A DNA stretch of 64,000 nt from Oligoflexia bacterium (GTDB lineage Bacteria; Bdellovibrionota; Bdellovibrionia; JABDDW01): NCBI GenBank assembly GCA_020847095.1, contig JADLCR010000096.1, positions 1,127 to 65,126 of the forward strand, read 5' to 3'. Positions 7,590 through 31,957 of this stretch are shown here, one piece after another. The translations under genes were made by a program, and so were the position numbers. The stretch's first letter is position 1. Every line of letters starts with the position of its first letter. The notes under the pieces are model-generated. The model saw nothing but the letters and a program-made list of their open reading frames with translations, did not search any database and was not told where the DNA came from.

Positions 7590-8765
7590 TTATCCCCCCT
7601 TAGAGTGGGCTAGGATTCGCAAATATTCGAGATAATCAAGCTCGCTCGGAAGGCTTCCCGAACGACTTTCGGATCTCAACGATTTCACATAAAGGCTATC
7701 TTCGTATCGATTGTAACAATCCATGGCGATCTTGGTGTGCGGGGCTTTAAAGATACAGGCCTTAAAATAAACTTCGTTCAGATTCCAAAATCGATCTTCC
7801 TGCACACTTTCATAGCATTGCCCTAAGAGATTATAAGCTTCAGCTTCATTTTGTCTGGAGTTTTTTCCTCGGATGTAATCATGCAATAAGCCCGAGGCCC
7901 TTAAAAAAGTGACATAACTCATTTGCTCTTCCAGCAAAGTCGAATGGCGATTGGCCTGACGGATCAACTGCCTTGCCATCACAAGCCCGCTTCCCGAACC
8001 TTTCGTGCCCTGGGACTTCCATTCTGAGATTACGCGCTTCCATTCGAGGGCTCGAGCTTTAACAGACGCAGGGCCTTCAGAAGTCTTTATGGCCAAATCT
8101 AATATTGAATTGGATCTTTCAAAGTCTTGCTTCACTCGCAAAGAAATCGCAAGTGCCCGTCGTAGAGCTTTTTCCCATTCAAAAGGCTTACCCTTGGCCA
8201 ACAGGGGGTCTTCAATCACTGACATGTAAATGCTCAAAGCCCGATCGTATTGGCGCGTTGCTGATAAAAGCTCCGCTTTTTCGATACGAGTTAAAGTTGA
8301 ATAATCATTGACGTCTCTCCATTGGTGAAACTCCGGTCCAAAAGTTCCGCGAGAGTGACACTGAACGCAAAGACTCGTGGCATTTCGAAGTACGGATCGA
8401 GAAAAATCCCGTTGTTTATTGCGTAACCCGTCGAGGGCGGTGGCCATTTCTTTGCTAAATGAAGATACGATCAATTTCATGCTGGGATCAGAATCAACAT
8501 TCTTAAAATCCTTTTCGTGAAGTCCTTTGATTTTAAGAGCAAGTTTAGCCAGCTTTTCGGTTTCACGGTCGATGCGGGCAAAATTGTCTGGGTCATTAAA
8601 TTCTGATTCACTAAAAATGATCGGTGCAAAAGTGTTCATCACGCCGGCAATCTCTTGCATGGTTCCTTGCCATGTTTCGGTGACAGGCGGCTGATCGATA
8701 TCAGCTTTTTTTGATGCCGCGCAGGCCGTAATAAGTGCTGCTGTGATTACAATTAAGAGCTTCAT
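7590..8765 (-). CDS. Lipoprotein with a single CxxCH heme motif, a putative mono-heme c-type cytochrome with a helical-repeat body.
   Basis: Lipoprotein signal (ALITACAAS) and one CVQCH motif. Confidence 0.5.
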   Translation of the reverse strand: MKLLIVITAALITACAASKKADIDQPPVTETWQGTMQEIAGVMNTFAPIIFSESEFNDPDNFARIDRETEKLAKLALKIKGLHEKDFKNVDSDPSMKLIVSSFSKEMATALDGLRNKQRDFSRSVLRNATSLCVQCHSRGTFGPEFHQWRDVNDYSTLTRIEKAELLSATRQYDRALSIYMSVIEDPLLAKGKPFEWEKALRRALAISLRVKQDFERSNSILDLAIKTSEGPASVKARALEWKRVISEWKSQGTKGSGSGLVMARQLIRQANRHSTLLEEQMSYVTFLRASGLLHDYIRGKNSRQNEAEAYNLLGQCYESVQEDRFWNLNEVYFKACIFKAPHTKIAMDCYNRYEDSLYVKSLRSESRSGSLPSELDYLEYLRILAHSKGG

Positions 8766-24732: not shown

Positions 24733-24736
24733 TAAA

Positions 24737-24772
24737 TGGCGGGGTGTACGCCTTTAGGGCTAACACCCCGAA
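24737..24772. repeat. Island-end att repeat and truncated tRNA-Asp copy that retains both acceptor-stem halves.
   Basis: tggcggggtgtacg is identical to 31881-31894, the 3' end of tRNA-Asp. ctaacaccccga matches the tRNA 5' end. The tRNA middle is deleted. Confidence 0.6.
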
Positions 24773-24813: not shown

Positions 24814-25935
24814 TTAGCTGTCAGTTCCGCCTTTTCTGATGGAAATAACCTCTGCTGGAGGGCGTTGTTCATTGGGAATAATGAAGCCCAGGGCTTCTGT
24901 AGCACCCCGAATATCCACTCCTGCCATCCTTAAATACCCATTGGTGGTTCTCATCGAGTTATGACCAACAATGGCCATAACATGAGCGATGGAAACCCCT
25001 TTGGCTAATAAGGTAGTAATAAACGTTGCCCGAAGGTCATGGAATTTAACTGGCGTGATGCCGATCGCCTTACAAAAGTCTCTCGTCACCTCTGCCTGAT
25101 CTCCATGAAACCATTCTTTAAGCCTTGGGAGAATGAACTCATCCTCAAGTTTTCTTTTGATCAACTCTTCTTTTAAGAATGTCATCAGCTCCTGAGAGAT
25201 GGGAATCACTCTATTCTGCCTTGTCTTTGTCGGGCCAAAGCCGCCAAACCGTGTCCACTGACGGGTTAATGTGATGACTCTTCGATCAAAATCCACATCA
25301 CTCCATCTCAGTGCAAACATTTCTCCAGATCTCATTCCTGTTGTTAGGGCCATAACCCAAACAGGATAAAATCTGTGGTTTACCGCTTTTGCTTCTAACA
25401 AAAACTTTCTAACTTCATCGGAGGTCAACACCTGCTGATCCGTGTCAGGCAGCTTAATAACAATGCCCAAGCACGGATTGTGGGTAATGTGACCCTCCTC
25501 AAGTGCCATCTGAAAGACTCTTTTGATCATCTTCAAAAGATGTTTTCGAGCACTTGGGGTGATGAGTGTATTCGCCTTTTCAAACACAAGCTCATAAACT
25601 TCACGCTTAGTGATTGTGTTTATGTCTCGCAGTTTCCAAACTGGGTCGGCCCACTTTCCAAGAGTCACCTTGTAGTTGTGAAGAGTAGAGGGTTTGCAGT
25701 TATTGAACTTCATTCGAAGCTCACAAGCTGTTCTCCACTCATGCCAACGAGGCACGACGTCCTGCTCTTTGAGTTGAGCAACTTTACGCTTGAGCTCAAA
25801 CTCTTCATTCCTAGCTTTGTGAAGCGTCTCGATGTTCATCTTACGCATTTGATGGCGACGACCTCGCTTATCTCTGCCTGTGACGTACACCGTGTAAAGG
25901 ACTTTACCGTTCTTCTCGTACTGATTAATTGCCAT
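24814..25935 (-). CDS. int: Tyrosine-type site-specific integrase.
   Basis: C-terminal catalytic HxxR…Y block (HDLRATF…GHNSMRTTNGYLR). AGGAG Shine-Dalgarno 8 nt upstream of the ATG at 25935. Confidence 0.9.
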   Translation of the reverse strand: MAINQYEKNGKVLYTVYVTGRDKRGRRHQMRKMNIETLHKARNEEFELKRKVAQLKEQDVVPRWHEWRTACELRMKFNNCKPSTLHNYKVTLGKWADPVWKLRDINTITKREVYELVFEKANTLITPSARKHLLKMIKRVFQMALEEGHITHNPCLGIVIKLPDTDQQVLTSDEVRKFLLEAKAVNHRFYPVWVMALTTGMRSGEMFALRWSDVDFDRRVITLTRQWTRFGGFGPTKTRQNRVIPISQELMTFLKEELIKRKLEDEFILPRLKEWFHGDQAEVTRDFCKAIGITPVKFHDLRATFITTLLAKGVSIAHVMAIVGHNSMRTTNGYLRMAGVDIRGATEALGFIIPNEQRPPAEVISIRKGGTDS

Positions 25936-25937
25936 GA

Positions 25938-26225
25938 TTAGGCTCCTTTCATTTCGATCAGAGCTCTGCAATCAACCAGCTTAAAACGCAGCCTTCGTCC
26001 AAATTTATGCACCTTGATTTGATCCCGATGGACCAAAATTCTCAGCGCATTTGCACTTATTGATAAATAATAAGCCGCTTCATCTGTACTCAGCCACTCA
26101 CGTTCTATTCGATTATCAAAGAACAGTTTTCTATTTCGTCCACCTAAATTATCCATTCTTCTCATTTCAGTCGAATCTTTTAAGTTTTTTAAGTCGTCTA
26201 ATTCTCCTCTCGTTAAATTATTCAT
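25938..26225 (-). CDS. xis: Excisionase/AlpA-like helix-turn-helix DNA-binding protein.
   Basis: HTH segment LSTDEAAYYLSISANALRILVHRDQI. Directly upstream of int with a 2-nt gap. Confidence 0.65.
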   Translation of the reverse strand: MNNLTRGELDDLKNLKDSTEMRRMDNLGGRNRKLFFDNRIEREWLSTDEAAYYLSISANALRILVHRDQIKVHKFGRRLRFKLVDCRALIEMKGA

Positions 26226-26697: not shown

Positions 26698-27222
26698 TTA
26701 ATGTAGCTCGATTGTTTTCTCAATATTCTGAGTAGAAACAGCACCATCAAGCTTCGTGGTAATTAATTGTGCAATATCGAGTGGGAGCGGCTTAGGGGAA
26801 AATATAAATCTATAAGCCCAGCCTCTTCCATATTGCTCTCTAATTTTAGTGTTAATATTTCCATCACTTAATAGCACAGGAGCCTTAACGAATTTAGTAA
26901 TAGTAATCTTAAACCTATGTGGATATTTTTTGTCGGACCATATTTCTTCTTCTGAATAGAAGTACTCACTTTCCACTTTTGCCGTAGCCCATATCATTCC
27001 AACGCAGTGCAAGAACACGACGGATCCTGGCTTAATGAGGTTTTTGAAAGTTGTTAATGTAGATCCAATAGTTTTTGTTTGAACTGCTAAAAGCAGGTTT
27101 TCTTTACGTTTTCCAAAGCTAACTATATTAAACGACATGGTTTCTAGTTCATATCCCTGAAAGCCTCTCATGTCTAGCTGCAGCGTTGATAAATTCATTT
27201 TATGAGTATATATTTTTGGCAA
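26698..27222 (-). CDS. PUA-like (EVE/ASCH-type) domain protein. The start is uncertain: TTG at 27222 or ATG at 27198 or 27171.
   Basis: GSVVFLHCVGMIWATAKVESEYFYSEEEIW…HRFKITI resembles the EVE core pattern (GDxVxFYHS…IVGIAEVVSEPY). It is divergent from the methyltransferase gene. Confidence 0.4.
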   Translation of the reverse strand: MPKIYTHKMNLSTLQLDMRGFQGYELETMSFNIVSFGKRKENLLLAVQTKTIGSTLTTFKNLIKPGSVVFLHCVGMIWATAKVESEYFYSEEEIWSDKKYPHRFKITITKFVKAPVLLSDGNINTKIREQYGRGWAYRFIFSPKPLPLDIAQLITTKLDGAVSTQNIEKTIELH

Positions 27223-27248
27223 TTAGCTCACACCCTAGACGAGGCAAA

Positions 27249-28796
27249 ATGAATCAAAATTTTGAAGCTTGCCCGATCGAGCTTTCTGACAAGCTTGGAC
27301 GGGAATTTTTTAATATCTCTTCAGAAAATAAAGCGACATTGGGTCAATACTTTACCCCATTTGAAGTTGCTAACTATATGGCTAGTCTTTTGGTTCCTGT
27401 TAAAAAAACAAAGGTGCTCATATTAGACCCAGGAGCCGGAAGTGGGATTCTATCTATTGCAGCTGTCAAATCATTAGTTGAGCGAGCAGATTCTATCACT
27501 AAACATTTTCACATCGATTTATTTGAAATCGATTCGTCATTAATTGAAAAACTTAGTTCAAGTCTAAAGCATCTCAAGACTTGGTGTGCTAATCGAAATA
27601 TCAAGCTAACATTCGAAATAGTCTCAGAAGACTTTATTCTAAGTAATTCATCGGCCATTAGCGAGCAGCAGTCTCTGATTCAATCAGTGAGCGAGTACGA
27701 TATCGTAATTTCTAATCCACCATATTTTAAAATAGGTAAGGACGATCCTAGAGCACTTGCCTGCGCAAGCATCGTTTATGGACAGCCCAACATCTATGCC
27801 CTCTTTATGGCGGTTTCAGCTGCGTTATTGAATGAAGATGGTCAATTGCTATTCATAACGCCACGAAGTTTCGCTTCAGGCCAATATTTCAAATCATTTC
27901 GACAGTACTTCTTCTCTCAAATTGCTATAGGGCAAATTCATCAATTTGTAAGTCGAGTTGATGCATTCGAAAGGGATAGTGTTTTACAAGAAAACATTAT
28001 TTTATTTGGGTTCAAAAAGAAGTCTACAACCACATCTCCGATAACAATTACAAGTTCACAAGGGCGCTCAGATATCAATGACAGCTCCACTCTGCGAGTT
28101 AAAGAATTTGAAATTTTAGAAAAAAATAATGACTTTGCTCTGTCGCTACCAAGTACTAAACAAGACATGCATGTTTTGAAAATTATTAAGAGCTGGAAGA
28201 ATAGTCTTGAATTAATGGGATTAAAAATATCAACCGGGCCTGTGGTTCCCTTTAGAGCCACAGAATTTTTAATGAAAGATAAGGTGCAAGGAGTTGTTCC
28301 CTTGTATTGGATACAACACATCAAGCCCATGCAAACACTTTTCCCGCTTCCCGCTTTTCGCAAGCAGCAGTGGTTTAAAGATAATAAGCAATCCAAAAAA
28401 CTACTCGTAAAGAATCAAAATATGATTTTAATGAGACGTTTTAGTCCGAAAGAAGACTTTAGGAGACTTACAGTCGCTCCGTTTTTAAGTTCTGGCTATA
28501 AAGGTAGTTTTGTAGGCTTAGAAAATCACTTAAATTATATCTACAGGCCAAATGGAAAATTTGCTGAGAGCGAAATTATGGGATTATCAGCTTTTCTCAA
28601 TTCTAGATTTTTTGATTCATACTTCAGAATATTAAATGGGAATACCCAAGTTAGCGCAACAGAGCTGCGGGCGGCTCCATTGCCACCGCAAGAAAAGCTT
28701 ATTGAAATTGGAACTACACTAATTAAAGCAAAGGATTACTCGTACCAAGCGATCGATACGGTTGTTGAAGAGATTCTTGAATTGGATGGCTACTGA
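27249..28796 (+). CDS. N6-adenine DNA methyltransferase, gamma-class of the Eco57I/PstI-methylase family. Start moved to Met22, which carries an RBS.
   Basis: Motif I LDPGAGSGILSIAA, motif IV NPPYFKIG, and an N-terminal YFTPFEVANYM. Confidence 0.8.
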   Translation: MNQNFEACPIELSDKLGREFFNISSENKATLGQYFTPFEVANYMASLLVPVKKTKVLILDPGAGSGILSIAAVKSLVERADSITKHFHIDLFEIDSSLIEKLSSSLKHLKTWCANRNIKLTFEIVSEDFILSNSSAISEQQSLIQSVSEYDIVISNPPYFKIGKDDPRALACASIVYGQPNIYALFMAVSAALLNEDGQLLFITPRSFASGQYFKSFRQYFFSQIAIGQIHQFVSRVDAFERDSVLQENIILFGFKKKSTTTSPITITSSQGRSDINDSSTLRVKEFEILEKNNDFALSLPSTKQDMHVLKIIKSWKNSLELMGLKISTGPVVPFRATEFLMKDKVQGVVPLYWIQHIKPMQTLFPLPAFRKQQWFKDNKQSKKLLVKNQNMILMRRFSPKEDFRRLTVAPFLSSGYKGSFVGLENHLNYIYRPNGKFAESEIMGLSAFLNSRFFDSYFRILNGNTQVSATELRAAPLPPQEKLIEIGTTLIKAKDYSYQAIDTVVEEILELDGY

Positions 28797-29731
28797 TGCA
28801 AAAAATCAAAGAAGCACAACAGATATTAAAAGCTTTAGGTTTGGCAACCAAGCAACAAAACGAGATGTCAGCTCTAACCCTTCTTGCCCTAGCAAATATA
28901 CTACCCAATGGTAGTTGGGCTAAGGCGAGCAAAAAATCCATGGGCGTTTCAAATGACATAATGGTTTTCGTATCCAAAATATATAAAAGGAGGTACGCGC
29001 CAAACTCACGCGAAACATTCAGACGACAAGTCCTGCATCAATTCACACAGGCTTGCTTAACAGCGTATAACCCCGACAATCCTAAGCTTCCAGTTAACAG
29101 TCCGAACGCGCATTATGCGCTTACTGATGAAGCCTTGGAAGCGATTAGAGCCTTTGGGAAACCACAATTTAATAAGCTTGCAGCTAAGTTTGTTAAATCT
29201 TTAGAAAAGCGAGCCGGTCAGTATGAAAAAAAGAGAAACATTAATCGCATTCCCTTAGTGCTTGAAGACGGTAAAACTCTAACGCTTTCACCGGGTGAGC
29301 ACAACGAGGTTGAGGCTGCGATTGTAAGAGAATTTGGACCCAGATTCGCTAAAGGATCGAAACTTCTATATCTTGGCGATACCGAAAATAAAGAAATCAT
29401 TTTCGAAAAGGATACATTAAAGCAACTTGGTTGCAAAATAGTCGCACATGGCAAATTTCCCGATGTAATTCTTTTTGACGAAAAAAATAAGTGGCTGTTC
29501 CTGATTGAAGCAGTCAGTTCACATGGGCCGATGTCTCAAAAAAGAGTGAATGAGTTAAAAGATATTTTTTCTGGTTCTAAGTTGGGACTGGTTTTTGTAT
29601 CTGCATTTCCGAATTTTACTGAATTTAAACGCCACGCGAATGATATCGCTTGGGATACAGAAGTATGGCTGGCCGATGCACCAGATCATCTGATTCATTA
29701 TAACGGAGATCGTTTTTATGGTCCTCGCTAA
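28796..29731 (+). CDS. Putative type II restriction endonuclease (BsuBI/PstI-like), cognate to the methyltransferase.
   Basis: ATG overlaps the methyltransferase stop (TGATG). PD-(D/E)xK-like FPDVILFD…LIEAV. About 311 aa, consistent with the PstI-family size. Confidence 0.45.
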   Translation: MQKIKEAQQILKALGLATKQQNEMSALTLLALANILPNGSWAKASKKSMGVSNDIMVFVSKIYKRRYAPNSRETFRRQVLHQFTQACLTAYNPDNPKLPVNSPNAHYALTDEALEAIRAFGKPQFNKLAAKFVKSLEKRAGQYEKKRNINRIPLVLEDGKTLTLSPGEHNEVEAAIVREFGPRFAKGSKLLYLGDTENKEIIFEKDTLKQLGCKIVAHGKFPDVILFDEKNKWLFLIEAVSSHGPMSQKRVNELKDIFSGSKLGLVFVSAFPNFTEFKRHANDIAWDTEVWLADAPDHLIHYNGDRFYGPR

Positions 29732-29744
29732 ACTATTTTGCTAG

Positions 29745-30191
29745 GTGGCACTGATGGATAAGACCTTTAATATTTCTATACAAAGCGACAGTGATGGTTT
29801 CATTGCACTACATTGCAAGCTATGTAGTCGTAAGTTTAAAATGACCGTGCCTGATATTGAAGATGAAACTAGAAATGGAACTTTTTGTCCTGCATGTGGC
29901 ATGAACCAAAATATGTCAGAGTACTATCCTGAGAGTGTTGCTGAGGCAGCAATGACTGTTGCTGCAGAGATGGCAGAAAATGAAATCATGAATATTTTCA
30001 AGAAAACATTTTCAGGCTCTAAACATATTAAAGTGAAAACACCACAGCCCAAATCTATTTCGCAACCAAAGGTATATACTGAAGAGGGGAGTTATTCATC
30101 CTATGGCCTTGCATGCTGCCAGCGAGAAATCAAAATTGAAGCAGCTTCTTCTGGCAACGTAGTATACTGTCCGTTTTGCGGGTTAAGTTAA
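29745..30191 (+). CDS. Zinc-ribbon protein of unknown function.
   Basis: CxxC…CxxC pairs (CKLCSRKF…CPACG and CC…YCPFCG). Starts 14 nt after the restriction endonuclease gene. Confidence 0.5.
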   Translation: MALMDKTFNISIQSDSDGFIALHCKLCSRKFKMTVPDIEDETRNGTFCPACGMNQNMSEYYPESVAEAAMTVAAEMAENEIMNIFKKTFSGSKHIKVKTPQPKSISQPKVYTEEGSYSSYGLACCQREIKIEAASSGNVVYCPFCGLS

Positions 30192-30192
30192 A

Positions 30193-31005
30193 ATGGTTGA
30201 TAGTCTAGGAGAAAAAGAGCTTAAAAAACTATCTTTGGATTTTCGTCAATTTTCAAGTCGATTGATGTCCTCTCAAGTTGGAGATGCGAAAAAAAATTGC
30301 TTTAGATTCATCAATTATATCGAGCAAACGCCCTTACTGATGGACTACATTAGAAATTGTCGACCAATCATTATAAATTTTGATGAAGTTCTAAAAGCCA
30401 GAAGCCAGTACGACCAATTTGATATTCCAGAGGATATTGAAGGTGAGATCTCTTACGTTTACTCTTTATTAAAATGGTTTCTACAAAGTAAATACGATTA
30501 CTACCAAATTGCATATACTTATGGGTCAGGAAATAAGGTGCAATACCACATAGAAGCCTTCAATCGAGGCGTAGTGCTGCCCTTTATTCAGCATTTAGAA
30601 AATCGAATACAAACGCTCATAATTAAAAGAAGTGAGGATAATGTGCCTAATCAAGGAATTAAGGTTGATGGAAATGTTGGACAAATAAATTACGCAACAA
30701 ATAGCAGCCATATTTCTGCAAACAACATTTCAAATTCGACTGTTGAGCAAATTGTACATGAAGGTGCTAAAATTTTAACAATGCTGAATAGCGAAAATAA
30801 TATTGATCAAGCATCCAAAGAGGAAACTAAAGAATTAGTTGAAACAATACTAAATGAAATCAAAGCAAAAGAGCCCAAAAAAACATTATTGCGCATGGCC
30901 AAGGACAGACTTGAGCAGATTACTAAGTTGGCGGGATTCACGCTCGCGGCTAAGGAATGTATTGAAAAAATATGCGCCTTGGCGGCTTCTTACATGGGCT
31001 CATAG
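30193..31005 (+). CDS. Hypothetical protein translationally coupled to the zinc-ribbon gene.
   Basis: 2-nt spacing from the upstream stop. No recognisable motif. Its C-terminus looks coiled/helical. Confidence 0.5.
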   Translation: MVDSLGEKELKKLSLDFRQFSSRLMSSQVGDAKKNCFRFINYIEQTPLLMDYIRNCRPIIINFDEVLKARSQYDQFDIPEDIEGEISYVYSLLKWFLQSKYDYYQIAYTYGSGNKVQYHIEAFNRGVVLPFIQHLENRIQTLIIKRSEDNVPNQGIKVDGNVGQINYATNSSHISANNISNSTVEQIVHEGAKILTMLNSENNIDQASKEETKELVETILNEIKAKEPKKTLLRMAKDRLEQITKLAGFTLAAKECIEKICALAASYMGS

Positions 31006-31605
31006 CTAGTGCTGACGGTTTCTCTGCCTGACGTCAGCTCTGTGCAGATTAAAATCCAGTTTCAACGCGTTTTTGCAATAGTCTTTCGTTAGATAGTCAA
31101 ATGTTCTTCGATCAATTTCAGCAAAAACAAAAGGAGCGCCTAAAGACTCCTCAAGTCGGTCAATATCCGATCTTGGTGAACTAGGATAATATTCTTTAAT
31201 CAAACCCTTTTCGACTAAATTATCAAAATATAACCTTGGGTACTTTTTCAAATTAAAGTCAGCATCAAGTGTATTATCATCTATAAAACAATGAATAATA
31301 AACTTCTCTACTTCGTGGAGACTTTTTATCTTTTTAGAAATGCTGCTACCAAAGAAGACCTGTCCACAAATATTAAAAACTCCATTTATGCAAAATTGAC
31401 CGAGTAAAATAATTCCTTTTAGCAAAAAGTAGCAAACGATAAACCCTGCAATTAGTGGAAATGCAAATGGTAACACCCCAAATACAACCGCAAGGATGGC
31501 ACCAATAAGACAAACAACCAAAGTAATTATGTCAATGGGCCTATCCGGCTTAAATCCTAAAATATCCTTTACAATTTTGAAGAAAATCCCCTCAGGTAAA
31601 GCCAA
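31006..31605 (-). CDS. Hypothetical membrane protein with two N-terminal TM helices and a cytoplasmic domain.
   Basis: Hydrophobic helices LVVCLIGAILAVVFGVL and LIAGFIVCYFLLKGIILL. Convergent with the upstream operon, with no gap. Confidence 0.5.
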   Translation of the reverse strand: MALPEGIFFKIVKDILGFKPDRPIDIITLVVCLIGAILAVVFGVLPFAFPLIAGFIVCYFLLKGIILLGQFCINGVFNICGQVFFGSSISKKIKSLHEVEKFIIHCFIDDNTLDADFNLKKYPRLYFDNLVEKGLIKEYYPSSPRSDIDRLEESLGAPFVFAEIDRRTFDYLTKDYCKNALKLDFNLHRADVRQRNRQH

Positions 31606-31880
31606 GATTGCTCCTTAATGAAGAATGACAAAAAAAGAGATGCTGTTGCTTAAGTTCAATAAAAAAATTCTCACTAATCTAAAGATGTATGTCTAGATTA
31701 AATTGAGTCCAGTTAAGACCTATCAAGTAGCTTTTCAAGTAGTACAAAAGTAGCAACGTAGCGAAATTTGTTGAAAGACTGCGAAATAAACCGGTTGATC
31801 GGCAAAGCTCGATTCAGTGTTTTCAATTACTTATAATCTTTGGGTTTCTGACTCAGACTTACAAAACGACTAGTGAAAAT

Positions 31881-31957
31881 TGGCGGGGTGTACGGGACTC
31901 GAACCCGTGGCCTTCCGCGTGACAGGCGGACGTTATAACCAACTTAACTAACACCCC
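31881..31957 (-). tRNA. tRNA-Asp (anticodon GTC).
   Basis: Cloverleaf with anticodon loop CCTGTCACG, T-arm GGTTCGAGTCC and a 3' CCA encoded in the DNA. Confidence 0.9.

Follow-up and report, generated by a model that had tools for sequence, protein, structure and literature searches.

Three genes packed against a restriction-modification (R-M) operon in an Oligoflexia metagenome-assembled genome (MAG) raise the question of whether they form a new anti-phage system and, if so, which of them belong to it. The window considered here is the whole stretch of 64,000 nucleotides that was analysed (contig JADLCR010000096.1, positions 1,127 to 65,126). The genes, designated A, B and C, correspond to the open reading frames (ORFs) at 29745-30191 and 30193-31005 on the forward strand and at 31006-31605 on the reverse strand, all of which we recovered (NCBI locus tags IT289_12510/15/20). 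A previous sequence-only reading had seen in them a candidate novel trio of zinc-ribbon sensor, partner protein and putative membrane effector, piggy-backed on the R-M operon. Our analysis narrows the candidate system to A and B, which we judge from their arrangement and domain variants, with a probability of roughly 60%, to be a mobile abortive-infection (Abi) defence pair resembling toxin-antitoxin (TA) modules.

Conservation of the A-B pair and the status of gene C

Searches of Pfam, NCBIfam and PHROGs gave no above-threshold match to any of the three proteins. In PADLOC, A matched PDC-M14A (PDLC04447; E 1.2e-39, 134 bits) over residues 4-147 and profile positions 1-149 of 152, and B matched PDC-M14B (PDLC04449; E 1.1e-62, 210 bits) over residues 5-265 and profile positions 3-263 of 267; five more PDC-M14B sub-models also matched B. 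The gene order agrees with the PDC-M14 layout, with A first and B adjacent on the same strand after a 1-nt gap. Judged by these profile matches, A and B almost certainly constitute a diverged member of the PDC-M14 candidate two-gene cassette. The view that none of the three genes could be assigned to a family thus stands for C, which had no PADLOC match and no relatives, and gives way for A and B, which match full length.

The label PDC stands for "phage defence candidate" and originates from a guilt-by-embedding screen for gene cassettes located inside type I R-M, BREX and DISARM systems, which added 145 candidates to PADLOC (Payne, Hughes, Fineran & Jackson 2024, bioRxiv 10.1101/2024.01.29.577857). 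PDC-M14 is listed there as CAS_00078 (FAM_02625>>FAM_00494) with 247 RefSeq occurrences, and two related arrangements fall below the authors' cut-off: FAM_02625, the A family, with another partner, FAM_00644 (14 occurrences), and the three-gene cassette FAM_02625>>FAM_00494>>FAM_00002 (11 occurrences) (Payne et al. 2024, supplementary file 8). The combination with FAM_00644 may represent the TIR or Ymh variants described below. With the pair already catalogued in 2023-24 as PDC-M14, the claim of novelty falls, and the locus is a diverged match to an existing catalogue entry, not a new system. What is new beyond that entry is a natural A-B fusion, the exchange of the C-terminal part of B for TIR or HEPN domains, a two-domain B model with a conserved unstructured motif, and the orphan status of C.

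An exhaustive HMMER search placed the nearest B relative at 33% identity and delimited a B family of 336 clusters, nearly all 260-275 amino acids (aa) long. Word-indexed homologue searches with A, B and C retrieved self matches only, a genome-contig search with the window's B alone retrieved no related loci, and an exact look-up of that protein in assemblies gave no record. Related loci were gathered from plasmids, species genomes, exact-sequence look-ups and metagenomes, with a 5-sequence B alignment serving as the query for the species-genome and metagenome loci. The relatives recovered are mostly from Bacillota, the window's host being an Oligoflexia MAG.

Of 22 distinct loci that were informative, 21 have an A homologue immediately upstream of B (A hidden Markov model, E 1e-34 to 1e-73); the two genes are separated by 0-1 nt or overlap by as much as 14 nt. 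The sole exception, in Thermoflavimicrobium daqui (locus L009, 7944-8303), is a 119-aa ORF that matches only the N-terminal domain of B and has no A upstream; it may have degenerated or may represent another architecture, and it sits in a co-oriented gene run that includes a protein kinase. At the other extreme, the 417-aa protein P0093 is a natural head-to-tail A-B fusion. As read from this gene arrangement, A and B are a co-oriented, translationally coupled two-gene unit that is sometimes fused.

The association of this unit with R-M genes is recurrent and far from universal. Besides the window, four other loci show R-M adjacency: the pair lies between hsdMS and hsdR of a type I system in L011/L012, directly after a type I hsdS in L015, directly after a type I hsdR in Alicyclobacillus sendaiensis (L005, 23-5473), and next to a 1427-aa MmeI-like enzyme in L020, where helicase, ThiF-JAB and UvrD genes occur in the same locus. 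More loci, on plasmids and islets, carry the pair with no R-M gene within view (L001-L004, L006, L007, L010, L013 and L027), including large Bacillus cereus-group plasmids. Other neighbours comprise AbiTii, an Abi-family protein, DUF4238, Fic, integrases, a resolvase and transposases, and searches of phage genomes and viral contigs recovered no copy of the pair. Because the neighbours differ at each locus, the pair behaves as an autonomous cassette; it is mobile, and its link with R-M is no more than facultative. The data do not support an obligatory dependence on the R-M operon: A-B recurs independently of the R-M pair, and the trio with C never recurs.

Several neighbouring arrangements were observed alongside. 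In L005 the pair is followed by a protein combining TIR_2 with TPR-S (sensor TPR), which is another candidate defence gene. In L011 a PBECR3-domain gene (7613-8008) follows A and a variant joining the N-terminal domain of B to TIR, all of them between hsdM/hsdS and hsdR. In the metagenomic loci L020 (6479-8891) and L021 (858-3268), a pair encoding HTH_3 and Peptidase_M78 (ImmA/IrrE-like) proteins directly precedes A and a 304-309-aa variant of B, which diverges in its C-terminal part and has no Pfam match there. The HTH_3 match was scored in L021 only, and the corresponding 116-aa ORF of L020 is assumed to be equivalent; the arrangement may be a regulated variant of the cassette.

Gene C (31006-31605, reverse strand) encodes a 199-aa membrane protein from a TTG start preceded by AAGGAG at 5 nt spacing and, as a 600-nt ORF in AT-rich DNA, looks like a real gene. 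A hydrophobic stretch at about residues 20-75 (Kyte-Doolittle 19-residue maximum 3.04) fits two to three predicted N-terminal transmembrane (TM) helices, in agreement with the earlier description, and an Rx4-6H motif occurs in its last 7 residues only. Among 5.8 billion proteins, plasmids, phages and the PDB, C matched only itself, and no homologue appeared even at E<=1 in the 27 related loci carrying A-B. What follows B changes from locus to locus, with no recurring membrane protein in that position. On this comparative evidence, C is an orphan: an unrelated, lineage-specific passenger gene of the island, outside the A-B unit. The sensor-partner-effector trio is accordingly not supported, and a false lead is removed.

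As had been described, C ends flush against the operon: the stop codons of B and C abut (TAG next to CTA, forming the palindrome TAGCTA at 31003-31008), which leaves no room for terminators between the two genes. The only terminator-like hairpin after B on the forward strand lies at 31305-31321, about 300 nt inside the coding region of C and antisense to it, and convergent B and C transcripts would therefore overlap.

Domain architecture, proposed mechanism and rival explanations

Gene A, a PDC-M14A family member with two zinc-ribbon knuckles, most likely occupies 29754-30191 on the forward strand and encodes 145 aa. Its longest ORF opens at GTG 29745, but this codon falls inside the AGGTGG Shine-Dalgarno sequence of ATG 29754, and the NCBI product is also 145 aa long. 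With this start, the gap between the endonuclease gene and A becomes 22 nt rather than the 14 nt previously given, while the tight packing of B, 1 nt after the A stop, is upheld. The zinc-ribbon assignment is borne out by CxxC motifs at residues 21, 45 and 139 and a CC pair at 121-122 (145-aa numbering), with C21/C24 and C45/C48 in one knuckle and C121-C122 and C139/C142 in the other; a predicted long helix and a variable linker lie between the two. A 23-sequence alignment revealed the conserved motifs D-x-[DE]-G-[FY], CxxC...FK, CPxCG, CC...K and CP[FY]CG. Hydropathy analysis indicated no TM segment in A, and Pfam and NCBIfam searches gave no recognisable DNA-binding antitoxin domain.

A role for A as a Lar-like restriction-alleviation protein was considered and rejected. 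The match of A to phrog_6422 (E 0.022) is below the curated threshold and a generic zinc-ribbon cross-match, and Lar_restr_allev (PF14354) matched the A-B fusion P0093 only, at E 0.0019 and 18.8 bits against a cut-off of 28.6, again as a zinc-ribbon cross-match.

Gene B (30193-31005, forward strand) encodes a 270-aa member of the PDC-M14B family. Its predicted structure, built from a 103-sequence alignment (predicted local distance difference test score, pLDDT, 90.4), comprises two domains: an all-α N-domain (residues 1-149) and a C-terminal four-helix bundle (182-269), joined by a low-confidence linker (150-181). The linker carries the motif GQxNxA (G163, Q164 in 89%, N166 in 83%, A168, and A176 in 84%), whose conservation equals that of the N-domain and is among the highest in the family, though the segment is unstructured in the model. 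The bundle is the least conserved part of B. Against solved and viral structures, B matched generic helical bundles only and nothing closer, and no Pfam family recurred among the 103 family members. Neither A nor B contains a Walker A or Rx4-6H motif, as reported before; Pfam searches found no HEPN-clan match in the window proteins and no TIR match in A, B or C. AbiJ_NTD models (E<=0.1) likewise matched none of window B, the TIR and Ymh fusions or the 103 family members, in what is a partial test given that AbiJ-NTD1/2 may lack Pfam models.

The most informative variation lies in what is attached to the N-domain. In P0106, P0113, P0048, P0148, L022 and L027 the B N-domain is fused to TIR_2 (E ~1e-15), and three of the four TIR-fused proteins checked (P-numbered) keep the CxxE catalytic Glu motif. 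In P0107 the N-domain is fused to Hypoth_Ymh with the HEPN motif RNPSAH; Ymh has been classified among the HEPN RNases as a family characteristic of R-M operons (Anantharaman et al. 2013, PMC3710099). An A homologue stands upstream in the TIR and Ymh variants as well. This combination of a constant N-domain and exchanged TIR or HEPN domains places the GQxNxA linker and the four-helix bundle in the effector position, and it marks A and the B N-domain as a constant core, presumably sensing or regulating.

If A and B act as an abortive-infection pair, A would bind the N-domain of B and hold the effector half silent, or would sense a phage cue and release it; on infection, the output of B would be released and growth would stop. 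The effector of the window copy would consist of the GQxNxA segment and the four-helix bundle. As these contain no catalytic motif, their expected action would be to bind or perturb a cellular target or the membrane. The cassette would have been captured behind the PstI/BsuBI-type R-M pair, on a 7.1-kb island, as a second defence layer. By analogy with the domain-swapped variants, we tentatively propose that A silences or triggers a non-enzymatic output of the B bundle, a specific mechanism that is more doubtful than the defence role itself. In the same tentative vein, the family could represent a new mechanistic type of Abi, in which a zinc-ribbon protein controls an all-α adaptor with a TIR, HEPN or bundle output, the bundle being an unrecognised effector domain (membrane perturbation or target sequestration) and the window copy firing when restriction fails. 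The hydrophobicity of the last B hairpin is moderate (family mean Kyte-Doolittle 17-residue value, KD17, 1.24; 18% of members reach 1.6), and that this C-terminal hairpin inserts into the membrane is speculation.

Several observations weigh against reading A-B as a defence pair with such an effector. The C-terminal bundle matched other four-helix bundles only in a generic way and showed no signature of an enzyme or a pore-former, and B has no TM segment (maximum KD19 1.12), which leaves the domain-swap analogy as the sole basis for an effector role of the bundle. Proteins of the A family are mildly acidic (mean isoelectric point 5.8), which gives no clue to what A senses. A concatenated A-B model, with 2 sequences over A, reached a pLDDT of only 36-74 in the A part and supports no claim about the interface. 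The R-M link in the window may be incidental, because most loci show no R-M gene, and co-transcription of A-B with the R-M genes is probable on two grounds only, the 22-nt spacing and the absence of any terminator-like site. A literature search found no mention of PDC-M14 or of the homologues' RefSeq accessions and no experimental report on any member, and the PDC candidates that a later study validated do not include PDC-M14.

Among rival explanations, A-B could be a plain TA or addiction module, which would maintain plasmids and islands through post-segregational killing and have no anti-phage role. A small first gene tightly coupled to a larger partner, the frequency of the pair on large Bacillus cereus-group plasmids and in small islets beside integrases, resolvases and transposases, and the presence of toxin-type domains (TIR, HEPN) in the variable slot all agree with this. 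A, however, has no recognisable DNA-binding antitoxin domain, repeated embedding in type I R-M operons and defence islands is the very signature used to predict defence, and TA and Abi roles are not mutually exclusive; we regard the pure addiction explanation as unlikely. A function of the mobile elements themselves outside conflict, such as transfer, replication or regulation, with proximity to defence genes reflecting shared variable regions, would explain why the pair always lies in accessory or mobile DNA and why the window's A and B have no enzymatic motif. This is hardly plausible given that the pair is absent from phages, that its neighbours differ each time, and that a housekeeping role sits poorly with fusion of the N-domain to toxin domains of the TIR and HEPN kinds.

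The remaining alternatives bind the pair to its neighbours in the window. That A-B is an accessory or regulator of R-M, for instance in restriction alleviation or R-M establishment, draws on its position behind or inside R-M operons in the window, L005, L011/L012, L015 and L020 and on the weak sub-threshold Lar-like matches of A and P0093. Most loci, however, have no R-M gene in view, and where one is present the types vary (type I, type II, MmeI-like), so there is no specific R-M partner; the Lar matches lie under curated cut-offs, as is typical of zinc-ribbon cross-matches, and the exchange for TIR and HEPN domains suggests that the output is toxic. We consider this accessory role very unlikely. 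The original three-gene view, with C as membrane effector, is far-fetched in light of the comparative data, which largely refute it. The zero intergenic bases between B and C, the location of C on the same island, its 2-3 TM helices and the good AAGGAG site before its TTG speak for it, yet C lies on the opposite strand and has no homologue anywhere searched, including the 27 pair loci, the gene downstream of B varies by locus with no recurring membrane protein, and the effector slot is already filled within B.

The abortive-infection reading keeps the defence-island pattern for the A-B pair, a PADLOC candidate found on plasmids and islets and near R-M genes and showing TIR and HEPN swaps, and drops it for C. 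If the pair is a working defence system, its functional unit would be A and B only, not the trio, with A and the B N-domain as the constant and probably regulatory core. The C-terminal bundle, positioned like the TIR and HEPN toxins, would then be where a new kind of effector might be sought, and Q164, N166, F17/R18 and the cysteines of A would be the informative residues.

The tRNA-Asp island and its R-M pair

The three genes belong to an island of about 7.1 kb at tRNA-Asp that also contains an integrase, an excisionase-like gene and the R-M pair. The left border is an att-like direct repeat, AAATGGCGGGGTGTACG (24734-24750), which is a copy of the tRNA-Asp 3' end. The right border and integration site (31878-31957, reverse strand) is formed by the tRNA-Asp gene (31881-31957) with the right repeat (31878-31894) at its 3' end. 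The two 17-nt repeats are identical at 16 of 17 positions and lie 7144 nt apart, and the G+C content is 0.37-0.40 inside the island versus ~0.45 in the flanks. A tyrosine integrase (24814-25971, reverse strand; Phage_integrase, E 2.4e-26) and an excisionase-like small DNA-binding protein (25938-26225, reverse strand; HTH_17, E 4.3e-07) are encoded next to the left repeat. Integrase, tRNA 3'-end repeats at both borders and atypical composition together identify a tRNA-integrated island, consistent with the mobile islet recognised earlier. The integrase sits at the island border far from the tRNA, although the integration site is the tRNA-Asp 3' end.

The R-M genes preceding A were confirmed as an Eco57I-type and BsuBI/PstI pair. 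The type II N6-adenine DNA methyltransferase (27186-28796, forward strand) matched Eco57I (6.5e-18), N6_Mtase (8.6e-09) and PADLOC MTase_II (PDLC03227, 2.8e-110), and its true start is probably an ATG at about 27249. The type II restriction endonuclease (28796-29731, forward strand) matched BsuBI_PstI_RE (2.3e-57), BsuBI_PstI_RE_N (1.5e-42) and PADLOC REase_II (7.9e-115). A γ-type N6A methyltransferase thus adjoins an endonuclease with both BsuBI_PstI domains, as in type II systems of the PstI/BsuBI kind.

Divergent from the methyltransferase gene lies a 174-aa ORF (26698-27222, reverse strand) that matched nothing in Pfam, PADLOC, NCBIfam, PHROGs, the PDB or plasmids. Like C, it is island cargo that could not be assigned to a family and lies outside the A-B pair; its annotated start overlaps the longest methyltransferase ORF. 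A promoter and terminator scan found promoter-like sites at chance level (20 found versus 15.5 expected).

Comparison with known systems

Compared by gene arrangement, A-B resembles type II TA and TA-like Abi pairs such as RnlAB, in which, on mobile DNA, the gene of a small partner comes first and is translationally coupled to that of a larger protein; it differs in that A has no DNA-binding antitoxin fold and B no known toxin fold. A second likeness is to the R-M-linked second-line suicide modules, namely PrrC with EcoprrI, RloC and Ymh-paraMORC (PMC3710099). In both cases a potentially toxic module lies inside or behind an R-M operon, and HEPN(Ymh) variants of B exist. In contrast to those modules, A-B has no ABC or GHKL ATPase, the window's A and B carry no HEPN motif, and the R-M link is facultative.

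AbiJ-type systems combine a constant N-terminal domain (AbiJ-NTD1-5), the proposed sensor, with interchangeable HEPN/Ymh, TIR, REase or kinase domains, and some also carry an N-terminal zinc ribbon (Anantharaman et al. 2013, PMC3710099). The B family shares this design, with an α-helical N-domain of ~150 residues joined to TIR, HEPN(Ymh) or its own bundle, a zinc-ribbon module that accompanies it as a separate gene or in fused form (P0093), and occurrence in R-M operons. It departs from AbiJ in having no AbiJ_NTD Pfam match, in that A is normally a separate protein with two knuckles, and in that the commonest C-terminal module of B is a non-enzymatic four-helix bundle.

The closest counterpart is PDC-M14 itself, with which the window pair shares full-length matches of both proteins, gene order, orientation, tight coupling and R-M association. 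The window copy is highly diverged, B being 33% identical to its best relative, and its host is an Oligoflexia MAG, whereas Bacillota dominate the recovered relatives. The candidates were defined from cassettes lying within type I R-M, BREX or DISARM systems, whereas this copy follows a type II PstI-like pair in an island at a tRNA gene.

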